Positions 1 through 59,008 of a stretch of 64,000 nt of DNA are shown here, piece after piece. A program made the position numbers and the translations under genes. Numbering within the stretch: the first letter of the stretch is position 1; every line of letters begins with the position of its first letter. Source of the DNA: Alphaproteobacteria bacterium (lineage in GTDB: Bacteria; Pseudomonadota; Alphaproteobacteria; SP197); contig OZ251464.1 of assembly GCA_965242595.1 (NCBI GenBank), positions 1,982,235 through 2,046,234 of the forward strand, written 5' to 3'. A model generated the notes under the pieces. The model was not told the origin of the DNA and did no database searches. It saw only the letters and a list, made by a program, of their open reading frames with translations.

Positions 1-3000
1 GATGGTGGTCGCCGCCCCCGACGGGCGCGACAGGGTAGCGCGGACAGTCGCCGCCCCGCCGCTCTCCGAGATCGCCGCCGGCGACAGCGCCAGCGTCACC
101 CCCGGCGCATCGTCGTTGTCGGTGGTGGTCACAGACACATCCACGTCGGCGATGCCGTTGTAGTCGGAGCCGCTGGCGCTGGAAGTATCCAGGCGCACAT
201 CCCAGGTGACGGTGCCGTCGTCGATATTGTCGTCCACCCCGGTCACCGTCACCACCTGATTGGTGTTCCAGTTGCCCGAACTCCCGGCCGTGAAGGTCAG
301 GGCGGAAGGCGATACCCGGCCCTCGCCGGCATCCTGGCTGGTCACCGTCACCGTCACCGCCTGCGAAGACATCGTGGCCTGGCCGGGATCCGTCGCCAGC
401 TTCACGGTGAAACTCGCCTGCCCGCGCCCCTCGCTCGCCTGGCCGGTCACCGTGCCCACATCCAGGCCCAGCTCGTCGTCGGCGTTGACGGCATAGATGA
501 ACACGTCGGAGAGCGCGTCGTAGAAGCTGTCGGCCGTGTCGGCCGTGTTCACCGCCAGCGTCACCCGGTAGTTCTGGCTGCCGTCGGCCGTGCCGGGCGA
601 GGGATCGTTCACCCCGGTCAGCGTCACCGTCTGCGCCGTCTGCCAGTCGCTGGAGGTGAAGGTCAGCGACGACGGCGACGCCGTGCCCTCGCCCGTGTTC
701 GAGCTGGTGACATCGATCACCACATTCGCGGTCGGCCCGGTGGCCAGGGTGATGTCCACCGTGGCCGTGCTGCCATCCTCCGAGGTTCGCAGCCGCGAAC
801 TGGTGCTGGTGGTCTCCGACATGACGATGGCCGCCTGGTCGTCGTCGCTGATGGTCAGGGACGCGCCGGTCACGCTGCCCACGCCGTGGCCGTTGGTCGC
901 CGCCGCCCCCACCGTCACCATGTTGTCTGTCGCATCCACCTGGTTGTTCACGGCCGTGATCGTCACCGTGCCGCTGGCGGTGGTGGCGCTGGCGGCGATC
1001 ACGATCCGCCCCGCCGCCCCCGCCGGCACCGTGAAGACCCCGCTCTGCGCCGTCACCGTCACCGTGGTCGGCTGGCTGGAAGGCCGCTCCAGAACCGCCG
1101 AGACCGCCGCCGCGCCGCCATTCTCGGTGATCGTGGCCGGCTGGACCGAAAGCGTCACCCCCGGCGCCGCATCGTCGTCCTCCAGCGTCAGCGTCGCCCC
1201 GGTCACGCTGCCCGCGCCCCGGTCGTTGGTCAGCGTCGCCGTCACCGTCGCCGTCCGGTTGGGTTCGTCGATATCGTTATCCACCGCCGTGATCGCCGCC
1301 GTGTCGCTGGCGGCGGCGGTGGCGAAGGCCGCGATCACGATGGTGGCGTCCGAACCCACCCGATAGGCCGCGCCCTGCGCCGCCATCACCGTCACCGTGG
1401 TCGCCACCGCCGAGGCCCGCGACAGGGTGGCGCTCACCGCCGACGTGCCACCGTTCTCGGAAATCGAGGCGGGAGAAAGCGCCAGCACCGCCCCCGGCGC
1501 CGCGTCGTCGTCGTTCAGCCTCAGCGTGGCGGCGGTGACGGCCATGGTGGTGGAATCGGCGCTGGCCCGGTCGTTCGTCACGATGGCCGTCACATTCGCC
1601 TGGCGACCGGGGCTGCCCTGGTGAACGTTGTCGTTCACCGCCGTGATCGTCACCGTCCCCGAGGCGTTCACCGTATCCCCAGCCGCGATCACGATCTGCC
1701 CCGCCGCCCCCGACGGCACCGTGAACGCCCCGGTCACGCCCGTCACCGTGATGGTGGTCGCCGCCCCCGACGGGCGCGACAGGGTGGCGCGCACCGTCGC
1801 CACCCCAGCGTTCTCCGAGATCGCCGCCGGCGTGAGCGCCAGCGTCACCCCCGGCGCCGCGTCATTGTCGGTGGTGGTTACAGGCACATCCACATTCGCC
1901 AGCGCGTTGTAGTTGGTATCGCCGCTGGCGGGGTCCAGCCGCACATTCCAGGTGACGGTGCCGTCGTCGATATTGTCGTCCTCCCCGGTCACCGTCACCG
2001 CCTGGGTCGTGCTCCAGTCGCCCGGCTGGAACGTCAGGGTGGAGGGCGAGACCCGGCCCTCGCTGGCATCCTGGCTGCTCACCGTCACCGTCACCGCCTG
2101 CGCCGGCTGGGTTCGCAGCCTCACGGTGAAGCTCGCCGTCCCACCCCCCTCGGTGGCCTGGCCGCTCACCGTGCCCGTCACCAGGCCGTATTCGTCGTCG
2201 TGGTTGACGGCATAGACGGTCGCGGTCGCAACCATGTCATAGGTGTCGTCGGCCGTGTTGGTCTGATCCACCTCCACCGTCACCTGGTAGTTCTGGCTGC
2301 CATCGGCAAGGGTATCGTCCTGGCCGGTCAGGGTCGCGGTCTGGGCCGTCTGCCAGTTGCTGGCCGTGAAGGTCAGCGACCCGGGCGAGACCGCCCCCTC
2401 GCTCGTGCCGGAGCCGGCCACGGCCAGGTCCAGCTCCACATCGCCGGTGGGCTGGCTGGTCAGCGCCACGGTGAAACTCGCCGTCCCGCCCCCCTCGTCG
2501 GTTTGCAGCCGCGCCGTGGTGGAGGGGGTGGGCGCCAGCGCCAGGCCGGCCGTGTCGTCGTCGGTGATGGTCACCTGCGGGTGGGCGGCGGCGTTCACCC
2601 GGTGGTCGTTGGTCTCCCCGATAAGCACGTACGGCGCGTTGGCCCCCGCGTCCACATCGTTGTCCAGCGCCGTGATCGTCACCCTGTCCGCGCTGGTGGT
2701 GGCGCCGGCCGCGATCACGATCCTCCCCCCCGCGCCCGTCGGCACCGTGAAGATGTTTTGCAGCCCCTGCACCGTCACCGTGGTCGCCGCGCTCGACTTG
2801 CCCGACAGCACCGCCGACGCCGTCGTCATCCCACCATTCTCGGAAATCGACGCAGACGACAGCGTCACCGTCACCGTCGGCGCCGCCTCGTCGTTCTCCA
2901 GCGTCAGCGTGACAGCGGTCGGGTTCGCCACATTGTTGCCGCCCGCCGCCGTGCCGGAGACCGTCACCTGCTTGTTGGGCGCATCCACATCGTTGTCGCT

Positions 3001-6000
3001 GGCCGTCACCGTCACATCCCCGCCGCTGACGGTGACACCGGCGGCGATGGTCAGCGTCCTGGCGGCGGAAAGGGCGAAGTCCGCCGCCACCGCGCCCGTT
3101 CCGGGCGCCGCCGCCACCGTCACCGTCACCGCTTCGCTGGAGGCGCCCGAAAGCGTGGCCGTCACCGACGCCACCCCGTTCGTCTCCGAGATCGACGCCG
3201 GCGACAGCGCCAGGGCCAGTGTCGGCAGCGCGTCGTCGTCGCTCAGCGTCAGCGTGACAGCGGTCGGGTTCGCCACCCCATTGCCGCCCACCACCGTGCC
3301 GGAGACCGTCACCGACTTGTCCGGCGCATCCACCATGTTGTCGTTGGCCGTCACCGTCACCGCGCCGGCGCTGGTGGTGCTGCCGGCGGCGATGGTCAGC
3401 GTCTTGGCGGTGGAAAGGTCGAAATCGGCCGCCGCCGCCCCCGTCCCAGGCGCCGCATCCACCGTCACCGTCACCGCTTCGCTGGAGGCGCCCGAAAGCG
3501 TGGCCGTCACCGTCGCCACCCCGCCGTTTTCCGAGACCGCGCTGGCCGACAGCGCCAGGGCCACGGTCGGCAGCGCGTCGTCGTCGGTGAGCGTCAGGGC
3601 GACATCCGACGGGTTCGAAAGCAGGCCGTGGCCGCCCGCCACACTGGCGGAGATCGTCACCTGCTTGTCCGGCGAGTCCACCATGTTGCCATTGGCCGTC
3701 ACCGTCACCACGCCGCTGCTGGTGGTGGCGCCGGCGGCGATGGTCAGCGTCTTGGCCATGGAGAGCGTGAAATCGGCCGCCGACGCGCCGGTCCCGGGCG
3801 CTGCCGCCACCGTCGCCACCACCGCCTCGTCCGATTTGCCCGAAAGCGTGGCCGTCACCGTCGCCACCCCGCCGCTCTCCGAGATCGCCGCCGGCGCGCG
3901 GGCCAGTGTCAGTGTCGGGGTGGGGTCGTCGTCGTTCTTGGTGACATCCACCGTCTCGTCGTCCAGGCCGTTGTACTTGCCGTCGCTACTGGCCGGGTCC
4001 AGGGTAATCTCCACCGCCAGACTCGCCGGATCGTCCCGGTCGTCGTCCACCGCCGTCACCCGCAGCGTCTGGGTGGCGTTCCAGTCGCTGGCGCTGAACA
4101 CCAGCGTCTTCGCGGTCGCGAAGGCTTGCGCATTGGCGTCGCCGGCCGCCCTGGCCAGCCGCACCTCGTCGCCATCGCCGCTGGTCGCCGTCACCGTCAC
4201 CGCCGCCGTCGGCTTGCTGGTCAGCCTCACCGTGAAGGTCTGCTCCGCTCCGCCCTCCGTCACCGTCAGCGTGCTCTCGGAGACCGTCAGCCCGGCCACA
4301 TCCACATCGGTGGTGCGCACCGTCTGCGGGCGCACGCTGGCCCCGCCAATCACATGATAGGCATCTGTGGGCTCATCCGGCGTGTCCGGGAACAGGCGCA
4401 GTGTGTAGTCGTCGTCGCCATCCACCACCTGGTCGCTCACGCCGTGCAGCGTCACGGTCTGCGCCGTCTCCCAGTTGCTGGCGGTGAAGGTCAGCCGCGT
4501 CGATGCCGCCGCCGTCCCGCCCCCCGCAGACACCAGCCCCTCATCCGACTCGTCGCTTTTCACCGCCACCGTGATGTTGGTGGTGGGCTGGCTGTTCAGC
4601 TTCACGGTGAAGGTCTCGCTGGCCCCTTCGGCCACGCTCAGCCACACCGGACAGGGCGCCCGGCGGCAGCGCGGAAAGGCCGGGGCCGTCACCAGGGCGG
4701 CGCGGTCGTCCTCCCAGATCCGCAGTTCCACATCGGCCGGGGCGGCGATGGTCAGCGTACTGCTGGGGGCGCCCTTCACCACCACCTTCTTGCGGGTCAC
4801 TGTGTCGTCCACGAGGGAGTCGATACGGTCGTCCACGGCCGTAATCGTCACCACGCCGGTGCTGGCGGTGGCGCCAGCCGCAATGATCAGCTTGGTGTTG
4901 GCGGAAAAGCTGAAATCGTCCGCCGCCGCGTTGGTTCCCGCCGTCGCCGAGACGGCGATCGTCACCGCCGCGCTGGCCGGGGTGCTCAGCCGCGCCGTCA
5001 CCGTGGTCATGCGCTCGGAACCCGGCGCCGTGGCCAGCTCCTTGATGGCGTCCGCCTCGCCCGAGATCGGGTCCGACAGCGCCAGCGTCAGCGTCGCCGT
5101 GTCGTCGTCCTCCAGCGTCAGCGTCAGCGACGATGGCGTCCCCACGTTGTTGCCGCCCGTCACCATGCCGGAGACCGTCACCGACTTGTCAGGCGAATGG
5201 ACGTTGTTGCCATTGGCGGTCACCGTCACCGTGCCGGCGCTGGCGGTGGCGCCGGCGGCGATGGTGAGCTTCGTGTTGCTGGAAAGGTCGAAATCGGCCG
5301 CCGCCGCGTTGGCCCCGGGCGCCGCCCCCACCGTCACCGTCACCGCCTCGCTCGACTTGCCCGAAAGCGTCGCCGTCACCGTCGCCACCCCGCTGCTCTC
5401 CGAGATCGACGAAGACGACAGCGCCAGCGTCACCGTCGGCAGGCTTTCGTCGTCGGTCAGCGTCAGGGTGAGATTGGACGGCGCCGCTATGTTGTTGCCG
5501 CCCACCGCGGTGCCGGAAATCGTCACCGACTTGGGCCCCGAATGGCGGTCGTTGCTATTGGCCGTCACCGTCACCGTGCCGGCGCTGGCGGTGGTGCCGG
5601 CGGCGATGGTCAGCGTCTTGGCGCTGGAAAGGTCGAAATCGGCCGCCACCGCCCCGGTTCCGGCCGCCGCCCCCACCGTCACCGTCACCCCTTCGCTCGA
5701 CTTGCCCGAAAGCGTCGCCGTCACCGTCGCCACCCCGCCGGTCTCCGAGATCGAGGAGGACGACAAGGCCAGCGTCACCGTCGGCAAGGTTTCGTCGTCG
5801 CTCAGCGTCAGGGTGACATCCGATGGCGCCACCACCCCGTTGCCGCCCGTCACCGTGCCGGAGACCGTCACCGACTTGTCCCCCGAATGGACGTCGTTGC
5901 CGCTGGCCGTCACCGTCACCGTGCCGGCGCTGGTGGTCTGCCCGACGGCGATGGTCAGCGTCTTGGCGGCGGAAAGGCCGAAATCCGCCGCCACCGCCCC

Positions 6001-9000
6001 GGTCCCAGCCACCGCCCCCACCGTCACCGTCACCGCCTCGCTCGACTTGCCCGAAAGCGTCGCCGTCACCGTCGCCTCGCCGCCCTGCTCCGAGATCGAG
6101 CTCTCCGACAGCGCCAGCGTCACGATGGGCAGGGTTTCGTCGTCGGTCAGCGTCAGGGTGAGATTGGAAGGCGCCACCACCCCGTTGCCGCCCGTCACCG
6201 TGCCGGAGACCGTCACCGACTTGTCAGGCGAGTCCACATCGTTGCCATTGGCCGTCACCGTCACCACGCCGGCGCTGGCGGTGCTGCCGGCGGCGATGGT
6301 CAGCGTGGTTCCCGTCTGGGCGAAGTCCGCCGCCACCGCCCCGGTCCCGGCCGCCGCCCCCACCGTCACCGTCACCGCTTCGCTGGAGGCGCCCGAAAGC
6401 GTGGCCGTCACCGACGACACCCCGCCGGTCTCCGAAATCGAGCTTTGCGACAGCGCCAGGGTCACCGTCGGCAGGGTTTCGTCGTCGGTCAGGGTCAGGG
6501 TCGCCGTGGTGACGGCCATGGTGGTGGAATCGGCGCTGGCCTGGTCGTTCGCCACCGTCGCCGTCACCGTCGCCTGGCGACCGGAGCTGCCCTGATGCAC
6601 GCTGTCGTTCACCGCCATGACGGTCACCGTGTCGCTGGCGGCGGTGGTGTCGCCGGCGTCGATCACGATCTGCCCCGCCGCCCCCGACGGCACCGTGAAG
6701 GCCCCGGAAACCGCCGTCACCGTCACCGTGGTGGCCGCGCTGGAGGGATGCGAGAGCGTCGCCGAGACCACCGAGCTGCCGCCGTTCTCGGCAATCGAGT
6801 CATCCGACAGCGCCAGCGTCACCCCCGGCGCCGCCTCGTCGTCGCTGATGGTCAGCGTGACGTCGTCCGGATCCGACGCGCCATCGCCGCCATCTACGGT
6901 GGCGGAGACCGTCACCTCCTTATCCGGCGCGTCGGCGGTGTTGTTCATCGCCGTCAATGTCACCACGCCGGTGCTGGTGGTGGCAGCGGCGGCGATGGTG
7001 AGCAGGGTTCCCGCCTGGGTGAAATCGGTCCCCGCCCCGGGCGAAGCCGAAACCGTGACGGTGGTCCCTTCGTTGGCCGCCTTGTCCAGCGTCGCCGTCA
7101 CCGTCGCCACCCCGCCGTCCTCCGAGATCGAGCTCTCCGACAGCGCCAGCGTCACCGCCGGCTTGTCGTCGTCTATGACCGTCACCGTCACCCCGATGGG
7201 GCGCTGCGCATGGGCCACGTTCCGCCCCACATCGCCGAGTCCGTAGTCGGCCACGACGTATCTGAGGCGCAGGGTGTTGTCCTCGTGGCCGGAGTCCGCG
7301 AGGGCATTCACGGTCACCGTCTGGGGCGTGTCCCAGGTCGTGGTCGTGAAGGTGTAGTTTTGCCCCCTCATGGGGGATAGTTGATTGTCGCCCCCCAGCG
7401 CGAGGCCGATGTCGGGGTAGAGGCCGACGCTGACCCACTGCGCCAGCCCAGGAGGCGGTTCGGTGTCCAGGACAAAGGTGAACGTCTTGCTGGCGCCCTC
7501 CTCGGTCAGGGTCATGGTGGTGGGGTTGAAGGTCACGCCTGCCGTGTCGTCGTCGGTCAGCGTCAGGTCCACCGTGGCTGGCGCCGCCACCCCATGGCCG
7601 CCCGCCATGGTGGCGGAGATCGTCACCTGCTTGTCGTTCGTATCCACCAAATTGCCATTGGCCGTCACCGTCACCGTGCCGGCGCTGGCGGTCTGCCCGG
7701 CCGCGATAGTCAGCGTCTTGGCGCTGGAGAGGGTGAAATCGCCCGCCACCGCCCCGGTCCCGGCCGCCGCCCCCACCGTCGCCACCACCGCCGCGCTCGA
7801 TTTGCCCGAAAGCGTCGCCGTCACCGTCGCCACCCCGCCAGTCTCCGAGATCGACGAGGACGACAGCGCCAGCGTCACGGTGGGCAGGGTTTCGTCGTCG
7901 CTCAGCGTCAGCGTGACATCCGACGGCGCCGCCACCCCGTTGCCGCCCGTCGCCGTGCCGGAGACCGTCACCGATTTGTCCGGCGCATCCACATCGTTGC
8001 CATTGGCCATCACCGTCACATCGCCGCTGCTGGCGGTGCTGCCAGCGGCGATGGTCAGCGTCGTGGCGGCGGAGAGGTCAAAGTCGCCCGCCACCGCCCC
8101 GGTCCCGGCCGCCGCCCCCACCGTCACCACCACCGCTTCGCTCGACTTGCCCGAAAGCGTCGCCGTCACCGACGAAACCCCGCCGGTCTCCGAAATCGAC
8201 GCCGGCGACAACGCCAGGGCCACCGTCGGCAGCGTGTCGTCTTCCGTAATGGTCAGGGTGACATTCGCCGGGTTCCCCACGCCGTGGCCGCCCGCCACCG
8301 TGCCGGAGACCGTCACCGACTTGTTCGCCGCGTGGACATCGTTGTCTTCGGCCGTCACCGTCACATCGCCGCTGCTGGCGGTGGCATTGGCGGCGATGGT
8401 GAGCGTGTTCTCCATGGAGAGCGTGAAGTCGTCCGCCCCCGCCCCGGCCCCGGCCGCCGCCCCCACCGTCACCACCACCTCCGCGCTCGATGCGCCCGAA
8501 AGCGTGGCCGTCACCGACGCCACCCCGCCGTTTTCCGCAATCGACGCCGGCGCCAGCGCCAGCGTCACCATGGGCGCCGTCTCGTCGTCGGTGAGCGTCA
8601 GCGCCGCGCCGGTCACGGCCATGGTCTCCGAGTTGGCGGCTGCCTGGTCGTTGGCCGCCGTGCCCGTCACCGTGGTGGCGCGCCCGGCGCCGTCAGCGCC
8701 GCCCTGATACACGCTGTCGTCCACCGCCGCCACGGTCGCCGTGTCGCCAGCGTTCACGGTATCGCCAGCGGCGATGACGATCACAGCGTCCGAACCCACC
8801 GTATAGGCCCCGTCCACCGCCGTCACCGTCACCGTGGTATCCGCGCTGGAGGGATGGGAGAGCGCCGCCGCTACCGTGGTCTCGCCGCCGTTCTCGCCGA
8901 TCGAGGCTGCCGACAGGCTCAGCGTCACACCCGGGGCATCGTCGTCGTCGGTCAGCGTCAATGCGACCCCGGTCGGGGCCGCCACGCCATTGCCGCCGCT

Positions 9001-11430
9001 GGCCGTGGCGGCAACCGTCACCTGCTTGTCGGGCGCATCGCCGTCGTTGTCCTCGGCCGTCAGCGTCACGCCGTCGCCGCCGCTGGCGGTGGCCCCGGCG
9101 GCGATGGTCAGCGTCCCCCCGCCGGAAAGGGTGAAATCGTCCGCCGCCGTCACCGTCACCACCACCGCCTCGCTGGAGGCGCCCGACAGCTTCGCCGTCA
9201 CCGTCGTCATCTCGCCATTTTCCGAAATCGAAGCCGACGACAGCGCCAGCGTCACGACCGGCAGCGCGTCGTCGTCGGTGAGCGTCAGCGTCACCGCCGC
9301 CGGCGCCCTCACATCGCCGCTCGCCTCCCCCGCAACCAGCATCCGCTTGTCCGGCGAGTCGATGCTGTTGCCCACCGCCGTAATCGTCACCGTGCCGGTG
9401 CTGGCGGTGGCCCCGCTGGCGAACACCAGCTCCGTCGTCGCCGACAGCGTGGCATCGCCCACCATGGCCCCCGCCCCGGGCGTCACCGTCACCGTAACGG
9501 TGGCCGCCCCGGCGGCCGCCTCGTCCAGCGTCGCCGTCACCGTCGTCACGCCGCCGGTCTCGGAGATGGTGGAGGACGACAGCGCCAGCGCCGCCTTGGG
9601 CACGGCGGTGATGGGGAGCCACTCGCCGTAGTAGTAATAAGTTGTTATGCCGTCGGGGAAGAGGCCGCCATGCGTGACGAGGACGACCACGCCGTCATTG
9701 TCGATCATCGCCTGGGTAAGACGGATCGTCCTGGACCCGCCGCTGCCGGTGGCCCGGCTGCAAATGGCGCCCTCGGTCGGCGCGGGGCCGCGATTTGAGG
9801 CGAGTCGCCTGACCGTCCTGTAAGCGCACGCCCAGACCCATCGATCCCCCAAGCTCCTCCCGGTAACGGTGATCGTTTGCGGGTCGGTCTTGCCCTTCAG
9901 CGACGCCGTGGTGACGTCATAGGTACCGAGCCCCGTTACCCAGCGCCTGTCGGTCCCGGTGGGCACGGTGCCGTCATTGTCGGTGACGGTCAGCGTCACG
10001 CTGGCCGGGTTCGCCACCCCGCCGCCGGCCGCGCTGCCCGACACCGTCACCTGCTTGGCGGCCCCGCGCATATCGTTGTTGACGCCCGTCACCGTCACCG
10101 TGCCGCTGCTGGCGGTCGCCCCGGCGGCGATGGTCAGCGTCCGCGTCAGAGACAATGTGAAGTCCCGCGCCGTCGCCCCGGTGCTGGGCGCCGCCGCCAC
10201 CGTCACCGTCACCGCCGCGCTGGAGGCGCCCGAAAGCCGCGCCGTCACCGTCGCCACCCCGCCGCCCTCCGAGATCGACGAGGGGGACAGCCCCAGCGTC
10301 ACCATCGGCGTGCCTTCGTCGTCGATCAGCGTCAGCGTGGTGGCTTCGGGCGCCCGGATGTCGCCAGCAACGCTGCCCGAAATCGTCACCTGCGCGTTGG
10401 GCGCGTCGGCGCTGTCGTCCATGGCGGTGATGGTGACTGTGCCGCTGCTGGCGGTGGCGCCGTTCGCGAACACCAGCCTCGTATTGCCAGAGAGCGTGAA
10501 ATCCGTGCCCGCGCCGGGGCTGGCCGCCACCGTGACGGTCGCCGCCCCGGAGGCCGGCTTGTCCAGCACCGCCGTCACCGTGGCCACCCCGCCATTTTCC
10601 CGGATCGACGAAGACGACAGGATCAGCGTCGCCTCCGGCAGCGAGACGATGGGCACCCATTCGGCGTAGAGATAGAAATGTCTGCCCGACGACTCCTCCA
10701 ACACCACAATGACCACGCCGTCATTGTCGATCATCGCCTGGGTCAGCGTGATCGAGTTGGGCGTGTTGTTGGTGGTAAGCTGGGTGCAGCCCGCGCCCGG
10801 TCCGGTGTTGGTGTAACCCTGGGTTGGCTGCGTGGCGTCTCTGGTGGCGCAGGCCCAGAAATCGACGAGGCGCTCCCTACCCCCTCGCGTCCTCACCGCC
10901 AGTGGCTGGGCGGTGGTCTTGGCCAGCAGCGGTGACGTGGTGATGTCCCAGTCGTTGGCTGTAGGGGCGCCGTTTCGCCACGTGGTCGCGGTGACCGACG
11001 GCTCGTTGTCGGCGATGGTCAGCGTCACGTCGGCCGGGCCGGTCAGGCTGCCGCCGCCGCCCGCGGCGCTGCCCGCCACCCTCACCATCTTGTCGGGCGC
11101 GTCGATGTCGTTGTTGACCGCCGTAATCGTCACCGTGCCGGCGCTGGCGGTGGTGTTGGCGGCGATGGTGAGCGTGGTGCCCGTCAGCGTGTAATCCGCC
11201 GCCCGGGCGCCGCTGGAGGCGACCGGCGCCACGCTGACCGTCACCGTCACCGCCGCGCTGTTCGGCGTGTTCAGACTGGCCGTCACCGAGGCCACCCCGC
11301 CACCCTCCGATATCGAAGCCGGCGACAGGCGCAAGCTCACACTCTGCGCCCAGGCCGGCGCCGCGGCGGCAAGCGCCAGCGCAGCCAGCAGGACGGCGAA
11401 ACCCACGCGGGAAGCGCGACAACCCCTCAC
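1..11430 (-). CDS. Giant Calx-beta-like repeat adhesin, paralog 2. This is the 5' partial, about 3800 codons; the gene continues past the window start.
   Basis: Reverse translation of 1..132 gives VTTTDNDDAPGVTLALSPAAISESGGAATVRATLSRPSGAATTI, the same repeat type as the large ORF. The frame stays open from the window edge up to a GTG at 11428-11430 that follows an in-frame TAG. The N-terminus reads VRGCRASRVGFAVLLAALALAAAAPAWA/QS, a signal peptide with an AWA cleavage motif. A GGGGGA Shine-Dalgarno-like motif sits ~5 nt upstream. It is absent from the ORF track because no stop lies within the window. Confidence 0.8.
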   Translation of the reverse strand, partial: MRGCRASRVGFAVLLAALALAAAAPAWAQSVSLRLSPASISEGGGVASVTASLNTPNSAAVTVTVSVAPVASSGARAADYTLTGTTLTIAANTTASAGTVTITAVNNDIDAPDKMVRVAGSAAGGGGSLTGPADVTLTIADNEPSVTATTWRNGAPTANDWDITTSPLLAKTTAQPLAVRTRGGRERLVDFWACATRDATQPTQGYTNTGPGAGCTQLTTNNTPNSITLTQAMIDNDGVVIVVLEESSGRHFYLYAEWVPIVSLPEATLILSSSSIRENGGVATVTAVLDKPASGAATVTVAASPGAGTDFTLSGNTRLVFANGATASSGTVTITAMDDSADAPNAQVTISGSVAGDIRAPEATTLTLIDDEGTPMVTLGLSPSSISEGGGVATVTARLSGASSAAVTVTVAAAPSTGATARDFTLSLTRTLTIAAGATASSGTVTVTGVNNDMRGAAKQVTVSGSAAGGGVANPASVTLTVTDNDGTVPTGTDRRWVTGLGTYDVTTASLKGKTDPQTITVTGRSLGDRWVWACAYRTVRRLASNRGPAPTEGAICSRATGSGGSRTIRLTQAMIDNDGVVVLVTHGGLFPDGITTYYYYGEWLPITAVPKAALALSSSTISETGGVTTVTATLDEAAAGAATVTVTVTPGAGAMVGDATLSATTELVFASGATASTGTVTITAVGNSIDSPDKRMLVAGEASGDVRAPAAVTLTLTDDDALPVVTLALSSASISENGEMTTVTAKLSGASSEAVVVTVTAADDFTLSGGGTLTIAAGATASGGDGVTLTAEDNDGDAPDKQVTVAATASGGNGVAAPTGVALTLTDDDDAPGVTLSLSAASIGENGGETTVAAALSHPSSADTTVTVTAVDGAYTVGSDAVIVIAAGDTVNAGDTATVAAVDDSVYQGGADGAGRATTVTGTAANDQAAANSETMAVTGAALTLTDDETAPMVTLALAPASIAENGGVASVTATLSGASSAEVVVTVGAAAGAGAGADDFTLSMENTLTIAANATASSGDVTVTAEDNDVHAANKSVTVSGTVAGGHGVGNPANVTLTITEDDTLPTVALALSPASISETGGVSSVTATLSGKSSEAVVVTVGAAAGTGAVAGDFDLSAATTLTIAAGSTASSGDVTVMANGNDVDAPDKSVTVSGTATGGNGVAAPSDVTLTLSDDETLPTVTLALSSSSISETGGVATVTATLSGKSSAAVVATVGAAAGTGAVAGDFTLSSAKTLTIAAGQTASAGTVTVTANGNLVDTNDKQVTISATMAGGHGVAAPATVDLTLTDDDTAGVTFNPTTMTLTEEGASKTFTFVLDTEPPPGLAQWVSVGLYPDIGLALGGDNQLSPMRGQNYTFTTTTWDTPQTVTVNALADSGHEDNTLRLRYVVADYGLGDVGRNVAHAQRPIGVTVTVIDDDKPAVTLALSESSISEDGGVATVTATLDKAANEGTTVTVSASPGAGTDFTQAGTLLTIAAAATTSTGVVTLTAMNNTADAPDKEVTVSATVDGGDGASDPDDVTLTISDDEAAPGVTLALSDDSIAENGGSSVVSATLSHPSSAATTVTVTAVSGAFTVPSGAAGQIVIDAGDTTAASDTVTVMAVNDSVHQGSSGRQATVTATVANDQASADSTTMAVTTATLTLTDDETLPTVTLALSQSSISETGGVSSVTATLSGASSEAVTVTVGAAAGTGAVAADFAQTGTTLTIAAGSTASAGVVTVTANGNDVDSPDKSVTVSGTVTGGNGVVAPSNLTLTLTDDETLPIVTLALSESSISEQGGEATVTATLSGKSSEAVTVTVGAVAGTGAVAADFGLSAAKTLTIAVGQTTSAGTVTVTASGNDVHSGDKSVTVSGTVTGGNGVVAPSDVTLTLSDDETLPTVTLALSSSSISETGGVATVTATLSGKSSEGVTVTVGAAAGTGAVAADFDLSSAKTLTIAAGTTASAGTVTVTANSNDRHSGPKSVTISGTAVGGNNIAAPSNLTLTLTDDESLPTVTLALSSSSISESSGVATVTATLSGKSSEAVTVTVGAAPGANAAAADFDLSSNTKLTIAAGATASAGTVTVTANGNNVHSPDKSVTVSGMVTGGNNVGTPSSLTLTLEDDDTATLTLALSDPISGEADAIKELATAPGSERMTTVTARLSTPASAAVTIAVSATAGTNAAADDFSFSANTKLIIAAGATASTGVVTITAVDDRIDSLVDDTVTRKKVVVKGAPSSTLTIAAPADVELRIWEDDRAALVTAPAFPRCRRAPCPVWLSVAEGASETFTVKLNSQPTTNITVAVKSDESDEGLVSAGGGTAAASTRLTFTASNWETAQTVTLHGVSDQVVDGDDDYTLRLFPDTPDEPTDAYHVIGGASVRPQTVRTTDVDVAGLTVSESTLTVTEGGAEQTFTVRLTSKPTAAVTVTATSGDGDEVRLARAAGDANAQAFATAKTLVFSASDWNATQTLRVTAVDDDRDDPASLAVEITLDPASSDGKYNGLDDETVDVTKNDDDPTPTLTLARAPAAISESGGVATVTATLSGKSDEAVVATVAAAPGTGASAADFTLSMAKTLTIAAGATTSSGVVTVTANGNMVDSPDKQVTISASVAGGHGLLSNPSDVALTLTDDDALPTVALALSASAVSENGGVATVTATLSGASSEAVTVTVDAAPGTGAAAADFDLSTAKTLTIAAGSTTSAGAVTVTANDNMVDAPDKSVTVSGTVVGGNGVANPTAVTLTLSDDDALPTLALALSPASISETNGVASVTATLSGASSEAVTVTVAAAPGTGAVAADFALSAARTLTIAAGVTVSGGDVTVTASDNDVDAPNKQVTVSGTAAGGNNVANPTAVTLTLENDEAAPTVTVTLSSASISENGGMTTASAVLSGKSSAATTVTVQGLQNIFTVPTGAGGRIVIAAGATTSADRVTITALDNDVDAGANAPYVLIGETNDHRVNAAAHPQVTITDDDTAGLALAPTPSTTARLQTDEGGGTASFTVALTSQPTGDVELDLAVAGSGTSEGAVSPGSLTFTASNWQTAQTATLTGQDDTLADGSQNYQVTVEVDQTNTADDTYDMVATATVYAVNHDDEYGLVTGTVSGQATEGGGTASFTVRLRTQPAQAVTVTVSSQDASEGRVSPSTLTFQPGDWSTTQAVTVTGEDDNIDDGTVTWNVRLDPASGDTNYNALANVDVPVTTTDNDAAPGVTLALTPAAISENAGVATVRATLSRPSGAATTITVTGVTGAFTVPSGAAGQIVIAAGDTVNASGTVTITAVNDNVHQGSPGRQANVTAIVTNDRASADSTTMAVTAATLRLNDDDAAPGAVLALSPASISENGGTSAVSATLSRASAVATTVTVMAAQGAAYRVGSDATIVIAAFATAAASDTAAITAVDNDIDEPNRTATVTATLTNDRGAGSVTGATLTLEDDDAAPGVTLSVQPATITENGGAAAVSAVLERPSSQPTTVTVTAQSGVFTVPAGAAGRIVIAASATTASGTVTITAVNNQVDATDNMVTVGAAATNGHGVGSVTGASLTISDDDQAAIVMSETTSTSSRLRTSEDGSTATVDITLATGPTANVVIDVTSSNTGEGTASPSSLTFTSSDWQTAQTVTLTGVNDPSPGTADGSQNYRVTLAVNTADTADSFYDALSDVFIYAVNADDELGLDVGTVTGQASEGRGQASFTVKLATDPGQATMSSQAVTVTVTSQDAGEGRVSPSALTFTAGSSGNWNTNQVVTVTGVDDNIDDGTVTWDVRLDTSSASGSDYNGIADVDVSVTTTDNDDAPGVTLALSPAAISESGGAATVRATLSRPSGAATTI
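260..4900. repeat. Multi-kb block of gene 2 homologous (roughly 85-95% nt) and largely collinear with gene 1 segment 20150..26500
   Basis: Antisense ORFs are near-identical at a constant offset of 19,897 bp: 1397..1624 vs 21294..21521, 1628..1912 vs 21525..21809, and 1913..2215 vs 21810..22112. The offset shifts by ~1.7 kb further on (4475 vs 26100). Confidence 0.7.
9620..9965 (-). other. Insert module copy in gene 2 (second)
   Basis: Verified reverse translations: VTLTVTDNDGTVPTGTDRRWVTGLGTYDVTTAS... and ...GSRTIRLTQAMIDNDGVVVLVTHGGLFPDGITTYYYGEWLPITAV. Confidence 0.55.
10640..10975 (-). other. Insert module copy in gene 2 (N-proximal)
   Basis: Verified reverse translations: VTLTIADNEPSVTATTWRNGAPTANDWDITTSP... 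and ...QAMIDNDGVVIVVLEESSGRHFYLYAEWVP. Confidence 0.55.
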
Positions 11431-11482
11431 TCGGTCCCCCTCGACAGGCGAGCGCAGCTATCTGGCAAGCCCCCATCAAGAA

Positions 11483-11488
11483 TGTCAA
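11483..11488 (-). promoter_or_regulatory. Candidate -35 box (TTGACA) of the promoter for giant gene 2
   Basis: Minus strand reads GGTGTTGACATTCTTGATGGGGGCTTGCCAGATAGCTG ~50 nt upstream of the GTG start. The -35 hexamer is perfect but the -10 is weak. Confidence 0.3.
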
Positions 11489-11690
11489 CACCTTACAGCC
11501 AGAAACTCATATCCCGCTTCACAGGGGCCGAACCGGTGCCCGGACGGCGGCGGAGGCCATCGCATCTGGCAACGAATGCACCAGCGGAAAGCCGGGAGAG
11601 GACCTGCGATGGCAGGCAATTGCAAAGGCCCCCGCCAGTTCGGCACAGACCCGGAATTGCCGCGCCAAAGCCACAAGAACGATAGCGCCA

Positions 11691-11699
11691 GCACAAACC
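11691..11699. repeat. Homopolymeric C9 tract (G9 on minus), ~260 bp upstream of the giant gene 2 start
   Basis: Direct reading: cca ccccccccc a at 11688..11700. Confidence 0.9.
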
Positions 11700-11808
11700 A
11701 CCCCCCCCCAAGCCCGTGACCATACCTCCAGGCGCGCTGTGCGGCGGACGCCGTTATGCGCCGGATAGCCATGCCGGACGCCAATTCTTGCGGTGCTAAG
11801 CCACGACG

Positions 11809-12546
11809 CTAAGCCACGACAGGGGCGGTCGCTGCCGGAACGGACGGCCCCTCGACAGCGATGCTGCGATCCGCCGCCATCGCAATATGCCGCGCCACGC
11901 GCTCGTCCAGGACGCTCTCCTGGGTATCGAGTTCAAGCGCGAAACGAATCAGCAGCCGTCTGTACAGGTCGAAATCGCGCTCTTGCCGCGCTGCGGCCAA
12001 TTGCCGAATGGCAAGATCGTCGCGCCGCAGCGGCCCGCATACGCGCATGAGGTGAAGGGCGGCGTTGCCCCGCTCCGAGAGGCGGCTTCCCCGCTGGATG
12101 GCGTCTTCCAATGCCTCGTCGAACGCCGTTCGCCCCGCCTCGGTCCATCGCGCCTTGAGGGCCGTGTAAAGGGCCGGCGTCGCCACCCCCAGCCAGCACC
12201 CGGTGTCATCGAGGGGCGCAAGGGATATGCCCGAATCGCCCAGCGCGCCCCCCACAACCTCGGCAGCCCGCGCAAGTTCCGCCCCCATGGCGACCACCCC
12301 TTCGCCGGAGACGATCGGCCGCGCGGATGCCGGCGGCAGCAGGGTGCCAAGCACCGCCGCTTCGTCCGGATCGGCGACCTCCAGCGCCCCGGGGTCGTCG
12401 CGCCAGTCGAGGCTGTGCGCAAGATAGAGCGCGGGATCGCCTGCGAATGAAAGCAAGGGTGGGCAAAAATGCATCCAGTCGCCAACATGGGCGGCGGACA
12501 TGCTAAAAAACCCCCGCAGGGTTGCGGCTGCGCGCGTGTCAACCAT
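11809..12546 (-). CDS. Hypothetical protein (245 aa). Its start overlaps the stop of the upstream ORF by 8 nt.
   Basis: ORF with mixed amino-acid composition (W, H, F, Y, C), unlike the low-complexity antisense frames. It is in the same orientation as its neighbours and translationally coupled to 12539..13315. I recognise no family. Confidence 0.5.
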   Translation of the reverse strand: MVDTRAAATLRGFFSMSAAHVGDWMHFCPPLLSFAGDPALYLAHSLDWRDDPGALEVADPDEAAVLGTLLPPASARPIVSGEGVVAMGAELARAAEVVGGALGDSGISLAPLDDTGCWLGVATPALYTALKARWTEAGRTAFDEALEDAIQRGSRLSERGNAALHLMRVCGPLRRDDLAIRQLAAARQERDFDLYRRLLIRFALELDTQESVLDERVARHIAMAADRSIAVEGPSVPAATAPVVA

Positions 12547-13315
12547 GAGCGGCCTCCAGCACCATGGATTCCTCTACCGTCTGCACCACCGACCCGTCTT
12601 TCTCCGACACGATGACGTGATCGAAAACCCACCTGTAGATTCGCTGGCTTTCGCTGTCTGCCAACGGGTTGCGCCCGAGCCAATGGATATATTTGCCGCG
12701 ATTGTCTTCGCTCATGTGGATTGCCCGTAGCTCCAGGCGGCCGGTGATCGCGTCGTGCGGGATGCGGACTTCCCATGTCCAGGCCCGCGCGGTGTTCGGC
12801 TGTCCCCTGACGATGGTGAACCCGGTCTCCGGAGGCCGATTCCCGGGCCCGGGGGCGCGGCCCTCAATGTAGTCGCTGAGCGTGTCGTAGTGGGCGAGAA
12901 TATACCGTTCGAAAGCATCCTTCCAGTCGCGCAACGGCACATCCAGCGTCCGGAAGGCCGCTTGCCGCGCTGTCGTCCCGAGTGGTGGATCGGTGTGGAT
13001 CTTGCCCGCCCACCAGCCGCCGCTGTCGAACGGCGTGGCCCCCCTCGCATCCGCAGGCCAGGCAACGCCTTCGGCCTCGCTCAAGACAAATACGATCCAG
13101 CCATAGCTGTCCTCCGCCCGCAGGACGTAGAAGTAGTAGGGCTTGCCGAGGATGCCAAGCCCATGCTCGGCCGCCAGGGTTTGCGGGCGGGCAGCGGGCG
13201 CAGGCCACTTTCCCTGGATGGCTGCGGTCACCAATTCGCGCCAATCCTCGCCACCATGAAGGTGGTAGTTGTGCAGCCCTCGGGTCAGCAAACGGTTCAT
13301 GGCCCCATCATACAC
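12539..13315 (-). CDS. Hypothetical protein (258 aa)
   Basis: Complex, non-repetitive composition (YYFYVLRAEDSYGWIVFVLSE..., WTWEVRIPHD...). It sits 69 nt downstream of the protease gene stop. I recognise no family. Confidence 0.55.
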   Translation of the reverse strand: MYDGAMNRLLTRGLHNYHLHGGEDWRELVTAAIQGKWPAPAARPQTLAAEHGLGILGKPYYFYVLRAEDSYGWIVFVLSEAEGVAWPADARGATPFDSGGWWAGKIHTDPPLGTTARQAAFRTLDVPLRDWKDAFERYILAHYDTLSDYIEGRAPGPGNRPPETGFTIVRGQPNTARAWTWEVRIPHDAITGRLELRAIHMSEDNRGKYIHWLGRNPLADSESQRIYRWVFDHVIVSEKDGSVVQTVEESMVLEAAHG

Positions 13316-13384
13316 CGGGAGCAGCGGGAATTGTCACCCCCCAATCGGCATGACGGCCTGCCGGGAGGGCGCCGGGCGGGGCGT

Positions 13385-14041
13385 TCAGGGCTTGGGTTCC
13401 GGCCGTAATGGCGGGCAGCTGTCCGCGCCATCCGCCTGGCGTTTCTGGCGCTGGCGATAGTATTCGACCAGTCGGTACGGGTCGTGGCCGACGGAGCGCG
13501 AAATCCGGTGGCGAACCTCGCGCACGGCGGCGATGACGGGATCGTCTCTCATGGCGATGCCACCTCTCCGGGAAGCTGCGACTTCACGCGCCATGGCGCC
13601 GCCGCGGCGCCAGAGAGTAGCCCGTTTCAGCTTGATCAGGGGGCGGTCGGGCGACTCCGGGCGCGGCCCCAGCGCGCGGGTGGCGCTATCCGCCACCAGG
13701 TCCAGCGCCGTCAGCACGATCTGGCCGATCAGCGGCTCGCTCAAGGGCGGGCCGACGATGCACTCGGTGATCATGAAGCGGTTGCCGATGTGAACCGTCA
13801 CCGGCCCGGCCACCGGGCGGGTTTCCTTGCGTTGGTCCGCATAGGTCACGACGACCTCGCGCTGCTTCCTCAGACCCAGGCGGCTGACCACGTTCTCCGG
13901 CAACACGAGCATGACCGCGCCGGTATCCACCACGCCTAGCACCGTCATGCGGCGAAGCTCGGATTCGGGGCGCAAACCCCGGCGGACGATGCAGCGGTCG
14001 CCGGTGTTTTCTAATTCCACCGAAGCGACGATCTCACCCAT
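13385..14041 (-). CDS. Retropepsin-like (clan AA, DTGA motif) aspartyl protease with a ~80-aa C-terminal extension
   Basis: Reads MGEIVASVELENTGDRCIVRRGL...LGVVDTGAVMLVLPENVVSRLGL...IGNRFMITECIVGP, with the catalytic D-T-G-A signature and the overall pattern of the PF13650/PF13975 type. There is a strong SD (GAGGAGGAAG) 8 nt upstream of the ATG at 14041; the ORF track extends it to a GTG at 14089. The C-terminal tail (MRDDPVIAAVREVRHRISRSVGHDPYRLVEYYRQRQKRQ) is unassigned. Confidence 0.6.
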   Translation of the reverse strand: MGEIVASVELENTGDRCIVRRGLRPESELRRMTVLGVVDTGAVMLVLPENVVSRLGLRKQREVVVTYADQRKETRPVAGPVTVHIGNRFMITECIVGPPLSEPLIGQIVLTALDLVADSATRALGPRPESPDRPLIKLKRATLWRRGGAMAREVAASRRGGIAMRDDPVIAAVREVRHRISRSVGHDPYRLVEYYRQRQKRQADGADSCPPLRPEPKP

Positions 14042-14061
14042 CGGCTTCCTCCTCACCGGCA

Positions 14062-14190
14062 TCCTGTCGCAACCGGAGCACCATGCCACAGGCGCCGCCG
14101 GGCGGGTGTCGGGTGGGTGTCACGGGGGTGTCGTGGACATGTTGCAGGGCGGCCGCGGCAGGCGGCGCGGGGCGGCGGGGGCCTGCCCAG
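14062..14190. repeat. Intergenic element R, copy 1. It lies between hicB and the protease gene.
   Basis: ~100-bp core is shared with 14627..14758 and 15151..15245. It contains GTGTC-type repeats phased at exactly 11 bp (14106, 14117, 14128, 14139). Its gene-proximal end reads GGTTGCGACAGGAT on minus. Confidence 0.7.
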
Positions 14191-14208
14191 GCCGTGTCCG
14201 GGCGCCGG

Positions 14209-14415
14209 TTAGACGGTGGCCGGTTCGGGCAGCGCCCCATCCTCATTGCGGACGATCTCCAGCCACTCGTCCACGATCCGGCACAGCTCGCGATACACCG
14301 CCACTTCGTCGTCGCCATGACAGCACGGGCCGATGACCCCGGGACAGGAACCGACAAAACACCGGTCCTCGTCCGACCATGCGACTCGCTTGATGTATTT
14401 CGCGCTGTCCTTCAT
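14209..14415 (-). CDS. hicB: HicB-family antitoxin, short form without a DNA-binding domain (68 aa)
   Basis: Reads MKDSAKYIKRVAWSDEDRCFVGSCPGVIGPCCHGDDEVAVYRELCRIVDEWLEIVRNEDGALPEP, matching the HicB-like antitoxin pattern (Y..v.WseEDg.yva..P.lpGc...GdT.eEA.......I.ewLE). It has a 4-nt ATGA overlap with hicA and a GAGGAG SD inside the hicA 3' end. Confidence 0.75.
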   Translation of the reverse strand: MKDSAKYIKRVAWSDEDRCFVGSCPGVIGPCCHGDDEVAVYRELCRIVDEWLEIVRNEDGALPEPATV

Positions 14416-14606
14416 GTCTGCGACTCCTCTATCCTTCGCCGCACCTCTCGTTCCTGGTAGGGCTTGGCATCGCCACCCAGGCTTCCGGAAATCGTCACAC
14501 GCTGCCCGTTCGGGTGGCGATAATTTCTGTGGCTGCCCTTGCCGCCGCGCGAAACGAACCCCGCCCGCTCCAGGTCTCTCACCAACGCTGCGACTTTACG
14601 CGGCAT
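14412..14606 (-). CDS. hicA: HicA-family mRNA interferase toxin (64 aa)
   Basis: Reads MPRKVAALVRDLERAGFVSRGGKGSHRNYRHPNGQRVTISGSLGGDAKPYQEREVRRRI. It has the G-KGSH-x-y-HP signature of HicA/YcfA-like proteins and sits directly upstream of hicB with overlap. Confidence 0.8.
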   Translation of the reverse strand: MPRKVAALVRDLERAGFVSRGGKGSHRNYRHPNGQRVTISGSLGGDAKPYQEREVRRRIEESQT

Positions 14607-14626
14607 GGTGTCGAGGCCGACATGGC

Positions 14627-14758
14627 CAACATTCTATCGCAACCGGGGCGCCATGGTCACAGGCGCTGCCGGGAGGGTGTCGGGCAGGTGTCACGGGCGT
14701 GTCGTGGGCGTGTTGCAGGGCGGCCGCGGCAGACAGCGCGGGGTGGCGGGGGCCGGGT
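14627..14758. repeat. Intergenic element R, copy 2, immediately upstream (minus sense) of hicA
   Basis: Four GTGTC/GTGTT repeats at 14677, 14688, 14699 and 14710 with exact 11-bp phasing. A TTGCGATAGAAT (-10-like TAGAAT) lies 25 nt before the hicA ATG on minus. Confidence 0.7.
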
Positions 14759-14762
14759 GGAA

Positions 14763-15044
14763 TTATCCCGAAGCTCGTTGAACTTCAGCCGCCCCGCCAT
14801 GCCGTGGCCCGCGCTGCCCAACCATCCCGGAGCACGCCAGGCCCGCGGTCGGTTCGGGCAGCGCCCCATCCTCATCGCGGAGGATCTCCAGCCACTCGTC
14901 CACGATCCGGCACAACTCCCGATACACCGCCACTTCGTCGTCGCCGTGACAGCACGGGCCGATGACGCCGGGGCAGGAACCGACGAAGCACCGATCCTCG
15001 TCCGACCACGCGACTCGCTTGATGTATTTCGCGCTGTCCTTCAT
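14763..15044 (-). CDS. Second, orphan HicB-like copy (hicB') with a 26-aa C-terminal extension and no hicA partner
   Basis: MKDSAKYIKRVAWSDEDRCFVGSCPGVIGPCCHGDDEVAVYRELCRIVDEWLEILRDEDGALPEPTAGL... is ~93% nt identical to hicB over ~250 bp. It has an intact ATG (15044) and a GAGGAG SD. The ORF track extends it to 15083 through the tandem repeat. Confidence 0.5.
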   Translation of the reverse strand: MKDSAKYIKRVAWSDEDRCFVGSCPGVIGPCCHGDDEVAVYRELCRIVDEWLEILRDEDGALPEPTAGLACSGMVGQRGPRHGGAAEVQRASG

Positions 15045-15057
15045 GTCCGCGACTCCT

Positions 15058-15130
15058 CTATCCTCCGCCGCGCCGCTCTCCATCCCTCGCCGCGCCGCTC
15101 TCTATCCTTCATCCTTCGCCGCGCCGCTCA
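15058..15130. repeat. Imperfect 22-bp tandem triplication replacing hicA upstream of hicB'
   Basis: Units are ctatcctccgccgcgccgctctc / catccctcgccgcgccgctctc / tatccttcatccttcgccgcgccgctcattcc. They correspond to the 3' end of hicA (RRRIEE codons and the hicB SD) present once at 14416..14440. Confidence 0.7.
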
Positions 15131-15150
15131 TTCCTGGCACAGTTGGCACC

Positions 15151-15245
15151 CTATCGCAACCGGGCCACCACCACAATAGGCGCTATCGGGAGGGTGCCGC
15201 AAGGGTGTCGTGAACATGTTGCGCGGCCGCCGCCCGACACCCGCC
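15151..15245. repeat. Intergenic element R, copy 3, partial and diverged. It lies between the giant gene 1 stop and hicB'.
   Basis: Starts ctatcgcaaccgg like copies 1 and 2. It retains three 11-bp-phased GTG(C/T)C repeats at 15194, 15205 and 15216. Confidence 0.55.
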
Positions 15246-15286
15246 CGACACCCCTGCGGCACCCACCCGACAGGCGGCGCGGGCGC

Positions 15287-56080: not shown

Positions 56081-56099
56081 ATCCAGGCCTGAACCGCCA

Positions 56100-56146
56100 C
56101 TGATCGAACCGTAATCTATAACAACCCATCGCGCCAACGCCTGCAA
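56100..56146 (-). promoter_or_regulatory. Candidate promoter of giant gene 1 in a low-GC stretch
   Basis: Minus strand reads TTGCAG-17nt-TGTTATAGAT upstream of the ATG at 56080. The track's TTG start coincides with the -35-like TTGCAG. Confidence 0.25.
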
Positions 56147-56455
56147 TCGTTTTCCGACATGGTGCAGTCACCGCCCACCTAATCCATTTTCCTCCCTACC
56201 ACCTTCCCCTACCTTGGCGCCCCCCACTCATCGCCACCCATGCTCCGGCCATGGCGGCAAGCGGCCCGGAAGGCCGAAGAGGCGCCCGGCCTTCGCCGCA
56301 GCCGCCCGCGCAAAGCCTCTTGGCAGCCGCACAGCTATCGAAGGCGGCAACGGCCACAGCGGCGCTCCCCGAGCCGGCCACCGGCACGATAAGCGACGGC
56401 AACAACCGCCGCAAGGGGACGATACCGCCCCCGCATGATGTGATCGACCTGCCGG

Positions 56456-56948: not shown

Positions 56949-57066
56949 GATCTGCCGCCCAGCCCGTTTACACCCTGGTACACCACGCCCCCGCCGTCAA
57001 CACCCCCACACCGCCATCGCCCCCAGGCCACCGGCGTCGGGCCAAGGCCCCCCCTCAAGATACCGT

Positions 57067-58810: not shown

Positions 58811-59008
58811 CGCTCCCTCCGTCGCCGTGCCGAAGGCCCGCCCAGTGCAGCGGCGACCAGCCTTCCCGGTCCCGCGCCGCTATATCGCAGAAAGTCTGCT
58901 TGAAGACCAGCCCTCTCCCTCAGCGCCGCCTCGCCGAAGCCCGAACTGGCAGCCCAAACCGCCCTCGTTCCCGGTCAGCCAGGGCAGGATGAGCATCGGT
59001 TATCTCTT

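Follow-up and report, generated by a model that had tools for sequence, protein, structure and literature searches.

We analysed a 64,000-nucleotide (nt) stretch of DNA from an alphaproteobacterial genome (contig OZ251464.1, positions 1,982,235 to 2,046,234 of the forward strand), called here the window, in which two giant genes are arranged in tandem. The second of these, which begins at window position 11430 and runs off the window edge at position 1, is the subject of this report. The two genes and the features that mark the start of the second are the following.

1..11430, minus strand: 5ʹ 11.4 kb of the second giant gene, codons 1–3810, defined by its open frame, its GC content at third codon positions (GC3), Pfam Calx-beta and LapA matches and the colinear orthologues L085, L084 and L001; the 3ʹ end lies past window position 1
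11347..11430, minus strand: predicted Sec signal peptide of the signal peptidase I (SPase I) type, amino acids (aa) 1–28, cleaved after AWA, read from the sequence and from a junction kept in orthologues
11436..11442, minus strand: Shine–Dalgarno-like GAGGGGG, 5 nt before the GTG (sequence)
11458..11460, minus strand: in-frame TAG, 9 codons (27 nt) before the GTG (sequence)
15287..56146, minus strand: upstream paralogue of 13,619 aa with an outer-membrane beta-barrel C-terminus (open reading frame (ORF), barrel homologues with PF03797, AlphaFold2 (AF2) model)

Reading frame and N-terminus of the second giant gene

Translation of the minus strand from the GTG at 11430–11428 down to position 1 yields 3,810 codons with no stop, as a first-pass annotation of this DNA had claimed in suggesting this very check, and the remaining two minus-strand frames of the same interval contain 274 and 18 stops. 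GC content at codon positions one, two and three of the GTG frame is 0.62, 0.59 and 0.91, and GC3 holds steady at 0.88–0.93 across all 900-nt blocks. Because the value of 0.91 is confined to this frame, it is genuinely the coding frame, and 70% GC does not account for it. The same annotation correctly noted that the gene is absent from the list of ORFs, since it runs off the window edge, and it described the two giant genes accurately as head-to-tail on one strand and 3.9 kb apart (the 13,619-aa ORF at 15287–56146 is on the minus strand, and the gap is 3,856 bp). It also placed the GTG start immediately after a TAG; the start stands, but the stop codon is 27 nt upstream. Between the TAG at 11460–11458 and the GTG no ATG, GTG or TTG occurs in frame, and a consensus scan upstream of the gene returned no promoter-like site.

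The encoded N-terminus reads VRGCRASR, then VGFAVLLAALALAAAA, then PAWA with the predicted cleavage before QS. This region includes three Arg residues, a hydrophobic core of 16 residues, Ala at positions −3 and −1, and AWA directly before Q29, whereas the Cys at position 4 falls outside any lipobox. Judged from these sequence features rather than by a predictor program, the N-terminus reads as a classical SPase I Sec signal. The cleavage junction, AxA followed by Q(T/S)(V/L)SL, is common to five relatives (P0243, P0001, P0245, P0246 and P0013), and this conservation supports the N-terminus as functional. The earlier proposal of an independent N-terminus with its own signal peptide therefore agrees with both the AWA–Q junction and its retention in orthologues.

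Repeat architecture of the encoded protein

Most of the protein is a string of beta-sandwich units, which we mapped using hidden Markov models (HMMs) built from the protein's own units. The repeat features and a second type of module that occurs near the N-terminus are listed here.

1..9606, minus strand: main array of beta-sandwich units of 115–130 aa, aa 609–3810 (custom-HMM unit map and unit boundaries)
2813..3896, minus strand: tandem array, period 345 nt, 3.1 copies, 82% matches (Tandem Repeats Finder)
5074..6501, minus strand: tandem array, period 345 nt, 4.2 copies, 84% matches (Tandem Repeats Finder)
7543..8603, minus strand: tandem array, period 345 nt, 3.1 copies, 80% matches (Tandem Repeats Finder)
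10645..11001, minus strand: module D copy 1, aa 144–262, immunoglobulin (Ig)-like beta-sandwich with two conserved Cys
9595..9972, minus strand: module D copy 2, aa 487–612 (custom HMM, E 1e-51)

The map contains 31 units over the part of the gene that is present, comprising 17 of type A (115 aa), seven of type B (111–120 aa) and seven of type C (110–127 aa), with the last type B unit interrupted by the window edge. All three tandem arrays are made up of successive type A units. Most units close with an acidic junction, for example LTLTDDE (also ..TLTDDE/DDD), and no RTX motif (GGxGxD) occurs in the 3,810 residues present.

The whole protein matches the Pfam Calx-beta family (PF03160) at 124 bits (E 4e-36), well above the gathering cut-off of 27 bits, and it also matches the Pfam LapA domain (E 4e-26) and DUF5818. 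The previous description of a Calx-beta-like repeat protein thus holds for the protein as a whole and must be qualified for its individual units. When six units were scanned singly against Pfam, two gave sub-threshold PF03160 matches (18.7 and 20.9 bits) and four gave LapA-domain matches (15.8–22.5 bits), and the two type C units scanned singly gave no relevant match. Because single units score only 16–23 bits, we assign them to the Calx-beta/LapA beta-sandwich class as divergent members.

Module D, of approximately 120 aa, is present in two copies interspersed among the first units and carries the motif LTQAMIDNDGVV...EWVPI. It has no match in Pfam even at E ≤ 10, and it is rare, with 17 relatives (E ≤ 0.001) among 1.84 billion representative proteins.

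Orthologues and the predicted 3ʹ end

Homology searches were conducted with aa 1–620, aa 3200–3810 and the barrel of the upstream paralogue as queries. Nearly all relatives in the databases are fragments of at most 1,100 aa or ORFs that frameshifts have broken up. The 51-mer at window positions 121–171 had no exact match in the genome or metagenome contig collections, and a scan of JGI metagenomes with aa 29–300 found no relative. Proteins this large are usually broken or missed in metagenome assemblies, and because most relatives are fragmentary, a clean stretch of 3,810 codons beside an intact 13,619-codon paralogue offers a useful reference for the architecture.

The closest orthologue, L085, lies on a 345-kb metagenome contig from ENA that was reached via the relative P0243. 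It is 88–95% identical to the second giant gene over aa 1–400 and remains colinear to the window edge with a few changes in unit number, such that nt 11430 of the gene corresponds to approximately position 22866 of L085. Past this point the orthologue continues for 4.5 kb (1,509 codons) to a stop at 27394, which gives a gene of 5,797 codons when its two frameshifts are bridged. Its last 500 residues match an HMM of the barrel family (E 8e-168), are 48–49% identical to the barrel of the upstream paralogue and end in ...LVLRLRW. A second colinear orthologue, L084, runs into a barrel homologue at the end of its contig. An intact relative, P0244, encodes 6,168 aa that start with a signal peptide and include a barrel; its head (aa 1–830) resembles that of the 13,619-aa protein, its body resembles that of the second gene, and its barrel is of a third type that is only 31% identical to the others. 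No RTX repeats were seen in the C-termini of the orthologues. The first-pass annotation had proposed checking whether the second gene also ends in a beta-barrel, and L085 and P0244, whose barrels are both of the family found in the upstream gene, provide an indirect answer. Projecting from L085, L084, P0244 and the upstream gene, we predict a full length of about 5,300 aa (4,900–5,900) for the second giant protein.

Heads, bodies and barrels appear to have been reshuffled between lineages, as judged from P0244, L084 and L086. The linker before the barrel in L084 (approximately 14124–14659) and in P0244 has a repeated motif, SPLxGEGxGEGSLLxG, which looks as though a repetitive element were being read in a different frame. 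In L084 the ORF break falls at the same place.

A divergent barrel family

The barrel used for these comparisons is the following.

15290..16729, minus strand: barrel of the upstream gene, last 480 aa (homologues with PF03797, AF2 model)

This barrel has no direct sequence match in Pfam or PDB, and its link to autotransporters therefore rests on homologues and on a structural model. The Pfam Autotransporter beta-domain is matched at E ≤ 0.01 by 13 of 27 barrel homologues, and five of the six homologues tested exceed the PF03797 cut-off of 26 bits. Their alignment to PF03797 spans profile positions ~5–207 of 255 (about 80%), with approximately 160 extra residues. The AF2 model (pLDDT 78.9, pTM 0.73) has a helix at residues 11–49 followed by about 18 strands, and Foldseek searches with this model return outer-membrane barrels generally, including the beta-domains of BrkA, NalP and EspP. 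The model and the homologues suggest that this is a divergent and probably enlarged autotransporter-like barrel.

Reference genomes contain at least 202 loci of this barrel family, and the counts that follow concern the best 80 of these. Many of the 80 come from known sponge-symbiont lineages of many phyla, as judged by genome names, including Alpha- and Gammaproteobacteria, Nitrospirales, Binatia, Porisulfidus, Poriferihabitaceae, Entotheonella, Latescibacterota and Acidobacteriota. The best matches are divided between metagenome-assembled genomes (MAGs) of Alpha- and Gammaproteobacteria, at 47–53% identity. At approximately 11 of the 80 loci, the 10 kb upstream of the barrel is filled by Calx-beta arrays. 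These sponge-symbiont loci agree with the reported enrichment of proteins rich in Calx-beta (PF03160) domains across the bacterial phyla of sponge microbiomes (PMC9531527, PMC11706023). At the locus studied here, a Sec signal and Calx-beta arrays come together with a divergent autotransporter-like barrel, one that is found repeatedly in symbiont genomes from many phyla.

Proposed function

What was observed comprises the ORF with its coding character, the signal-peptide features, the arrangement of the repeats, the paralogous relationship and the barrels in which the orthologues end. On this basis we consider it probable that the second giant gene is functional and encodes a giant Sec-exported fibre that is anchored to the cell surface by a barrel and serves in adhesion. 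The precursor would cross the inner membrane via Sec, and its 28-residue signal peptide would be removed after AWA. The mature chain would display at least 31 divergent Calx-beta/LapA-like beta-sandwich units, and by analogy with related proteins the acidic junctions (..TLTDDE/DDD) probably bind Ca2+, which would stiffen the chain into a rod. The two Ig-like D modules, predicted to be of a disulfide type and located within the first 620 residues, would be carried to the far tip if the chain is anchored at its C-terminus, and such anchoring makes them the best candidates for ligand binding. The ~1,100–2,000 residues that are expected past the window would add, by orthology, a pre-barrel Cys domain, an Ig domain of the He_PIG type, a linker helix and the outer-membrane barrel. 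Once inserted in the outer membrane, this barrel would allow the fibre to pass and would keep it attached to the cell, in the manner of type V secretion. What is known of the family, which also guides our expectations of Ca2+ binding and of the host, suggests a role in Ca2+-dependent adhesion of a host-associated, and probably sponge-associated, bacterium. If the fibres bind host matrix, they could have a bearing on the recognition and retention of sponge symbionts.

Several observations weigh against this interpretation. The 3ʹ end of the second gene is outside the window, and its barrel end, which we judge to be likely, is read from orthologues. Both L085 and L084 contain frameshifts, which may mean that these copies are pseudogenes or come from assemblies of low coverage. 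Neither the upstream gene's barrel nor that of L085 itself matches the Pfam Autotransporter family, the model has about 18 strands rather than the 12 of classical autotransporters, and the Foldseek TM-scores are low, at 0.3–0.6 (0.5–0.6 for BrkA and EspP, normalised by target). In addition, the relative P0245 (3,616 aa, 51% identical) begins with an N-terminus of the same type and ends without a barrel in dockerin-like EF-hand repeats.

The product could accordingly be a Sec-exported Calx-beta fibre that lacks a barrel, and that either has a dockerin-like end, being released or docked non-covalently, or is truncated. P0245 shares with the second giant protein the signal-peptide junction and the presence of two D modules. 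It is colinear with aa 609–3322 at 51% identity and has two of the dockerin-like repeats at its end, and Dockerin (PF00404) also occurs among other hits. However, the second giant gene adds further repeats beyond the position at which the C-terminal region of P0245 starts. Moreover, the much closer orthologue L085 (88–95% identical at the N-terminus) is, together with L084 and P0244, colinear to the window edge and ends in a barrel. We regard a fibre without a barrel as rather unlikely, and we retain the barrel-anchored fibre as the preferred interpretation.

A more far-reaching scenario, which we offer as speculation with a low chance of being correct, is that the barrel, instead of being a classical 12-strand autotransporter domain, is a larger (~18-strand) autotransporter-like export and anchor module specialised for giant beta-sandwich fibres, and that it reached sponge symbionts of many phyla by horizontal spread. 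The Calx-beta arrays displayed by such modules might engage or mimic the host's own aggregation factor, with the D modules as the determinant of specificity. The aggregation factor of sponges is built of Calx-beta domains and is Ca2+-dependent (PMC5400394).

Paralogy and the question of surface variation

The first-pass annotation likened the two genes to paralogous adhesin families used for variation. That they are paralogues is evident from protein high-scoring segment pairs that are 40–58% identical and from nucleotide tracts of up to 87% identity over 1.4 kb. Most 300-nt windows of the second giant gene match the upstream gene best, at 75–85% identity. The features relevant to variation are as follows.

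Second gene aa 401–700: colinear with upstream gene aa 1633–1940
Second gene aa 2101–2420: colinear with upstream gene aa 9802–10120
Second gene aa 2901–3400: colinear with upstream gene aa 11230–11680
1172..2111, minus strand: block of patches 91–95% identical to the upstream gene (mostly window 21072–21938), on a background of 75–80% (blastn)
4355..4720, minus strand: patches 92.5–97.6% identical to the upstream gene (window 25977–26342), which hold the longest exact match of 75 nt (blastn and exact-match scan)
11701..11709, minus strand: run of nine G residues (G9) in the non-coding gap, 271 nt before the start codon (homopolymer scan of the 64-kb window)

Tandem paralogues could form a variation system in which recombination or on/off switching alters the exposed surface. 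Identity between the two genes is indeed mosaic, with short patches of 92–98% over 166–346 nt (the best tract being 346 nt at 95%) rising from the background of 75–80%, and P0244 pairs a head that resembles the upstream gene with a body that resembles the second. The three arrays of 345-nt period also speak for such a system, and the G9 run, which is the sole homopolymer of at least 8 bases in the window, could act as a slippage switch. Block shuffles of the window lead to an expectation of 12.6 G/C runs of at least 9 bases where one is observed, and long G/C runs are thus strongly avoided in this DNA.

Other observations speak against such a system. The patches are short, with no exact match between the paralogues longer than 75 nt, and the tandem units are only 80–84% alike. 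By sequence comparison, identity between the paralogues falls far below the near-identical tracts of active variation systems, and the mosaic fits either past gene conversion or shared constraint. Searches of the spacer between the two genes show no recombinase or invertase gene, the G9 run was not found upstream of the L085 and L001 orthologues, and the tandem layout is absent at L085. Finally, both paralogues are complete units of expression with their own start and signal peptide, and therefore neither is a silent cassette. Paralogy is borne out, whereas the proposed link to variation is not well supported, given the short tracts, the lack of a recombinase gene in the spacer and a layout that is not conserved. 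We consider a variation system unlikely.

Secretion route and relation to known systems

Giant repeat adhesins are often substrates of type I secretion, and this general knowledge is one reason to consider an RTX/LapA-like adhesin that is exported through an ATP-binding cassette (ABC) transporter, membrane fusion protein (MFP) and TolC channel by means of a C-terminal signal and is held by an N-terminal retention module. The match to the Pfam LapA domain (4e-26) points in the same direction, as does the occurrence of Calx-beta-like units in LapA (PMC12153261). However, the protein begins with a cleavable and conserved Sec signal peptide in place of a retention module, and GGxGxD motifs are absent from the 3,810 residues. 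Scans of the spacer ORFs and of ORFs at 56196–63943 recovered no ABC, MFP, TolC or other type I secretion genes, and the orthologues terminate in an outer-membrane barrel and not in RTX repeats. Type I secretion is consequently very improbable for this protein. The giant adhesins LapA, SiiE and MpIBP do share with the fibre predicted here a Ca2+-stiffened rod of beta-sandwiches, ligand-binding modules at one end and similarity to the Pfam LapA domain, but they lack a Sec signal and use RTX repeats and a C-terminal type I signal.

That the open frame is no gene at all, but a product of 70% GC and repeats, is already refuted by codon bias and homology: high-GC DNA does yield long false ORFs, and the opposite strand here has an ORF of 2,164 aa and one frame with just 3 stops, but a GC3 of 0.91 occurs in the GTG frame only, and this frame has domain matches, a signal peptide and hundreds of homologues with colinear orthologues among them.

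The Sec-exported, barrel-anchored fibre that we favour is most readily compared with type Va autotransporters. Both have an N-terminal Sec signal and a very long surface passenger, and the orthologues and the upstream paralogue also show the outer-membrane barrel at the C-terminus, following a helix. The passenger here differs in being a string of beta-sandwiches instead of a beta-helix and, to our knowledge, is far longer than in characterised type Va examples. The barrel region is also different, having ~370 aa and ~18 predicted strands in the model of the upstream gene.

Among Sec-exported adhesins, BapP of Pseudoalteromonas tunicata is a Calx-beta protein of the outer membrane (PMC12153261). 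Like other Bap and Ca2+-dependent adhesins, it carries, after a Sec signal, Calx-beta-type and Ig-like repeats in which Ca2+ sites are predicted (PMC12153261). BapP has 12 repeats and a beta-propeller head, whereas the protein studied here has at least 31 repeats, another N-terminal module and, by orthology, a barrel end. Calx-beta proteins of sponge symbionts are similarly rich in PF03160 domains, and many of the matching barrel loci are, by genome name, in sponge-symbiont MAGs. The papers on these proteins count domains (PMC9531527, PMC11706023); neither giant barrel-anchored arrays nor module D nor this locus is described in them. The gene probably encodes an ordinary further example of the giant Calx-beta surface proteins of symbionts, with an autotransporter-like anchor, a kind already known and enriched in sponge-associated bacteria, and not a new system. 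For annotation, positions 1–11430 represent one gene cut by the window, with no separate novelty. The main points of interest are its value as a clean example, its unusual barrel and module D.

The spacer and wider genomic context

The interval between the two giant genes has a GC content of 0.67, compared with 0.70–0.73 in the genes themselves, and is composed of the following features.

11431..15286, minus strand: spacer of 3,856 bp with all ORFs on the minus strand (ORFs, Pfam, NCBIfam)
11809–12546 and 12539–13315, minus strand: two unmatched ORFs, 258 and 245 aa, with an 8-nt overlap (ORF call; GC3 0.76–0.77)
13385–14089, minus strand: retropepsin-like protease ORF, 234 aa (Pfam/NCBIfam)
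14209–14415, minus strand: hicB (Pfam/NCBIfam)
14412–14606, minus strand: hicA (Pfam/NCBIfam)
14763–15083, minus strand: extra hicB copy (Pfam/NCBIfam; 232-nt duplication, 93% identity)

The interval had been termed a 3.9-kb 'cassette', but it is a mixed spacer (hicAB, an extra hicB, a protease and two unmatched ORFs) in which no cassette can be recognised. A duplication of ~0.6 kb within 14063–15272 has left hicB and the ~100-nt element that follows it present twice (14218–14449 and 14847–15078, 93% identical; 14087–14183 and 14658–14754, 90% identical), and this created hicAB plus an orphan hicB. A partial third copy and an inverted copy of the element are located at 15151–15272, right after the stop codon of the 13,619-aa gene. 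We considered whether the spacer is an integron cassette array, given that its ~100-nt elements have GCAAC...GTTGC ends, and rejected the idea on failure of attC-type folding: 107-nt stretches over the repeated elements fold as single strands no better than shuffled sequences on both strands (z −0.25 to +0.34). The repeated elements are explained instead by the duplication that includes hicB.

The product of 13385–14089 has a clan AA aspartic protease domain of the DTG type at aa 47–138, followed by an unrelated basic tail of ~90 aa, and PADLOC and PHROGs return nothing for this ORF. The ORFs within 11809–13315 form a unit of two genes immediately upstream of the second giant gene and match nothing in Pfam, NCBIfam, PADLOC or PHROGs. 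No record was found for three of the spacer proteins.

At L085, the orthologue is placed between uvrB, which is upstream, and infC-rpmI-rplT-pheS. At L001, an IS21 element (istA/istB, 7062–9366) is situated in place of the spacer between a barrel-ended giant gene and the start of the orthologue, and insertions seem to occur readily at the junction between such giant genes. L001 and L085 share 95% identity in their 5ʹ regions, and the 5ʹ region in the window is unrelated to both. Calx-beta repeats restart downstream on the same strand at one of the 80 reference barrel loci (L028). With this single case, and uvrB upstream in L085, the tandem layout was rejected as a trait of the family. The right flank of the window has an RmuC-like gene (57410–58810) and a gene for a pentapeptide-repeat protein (59009–60370), with a lower GC content of 0.59–0.68.

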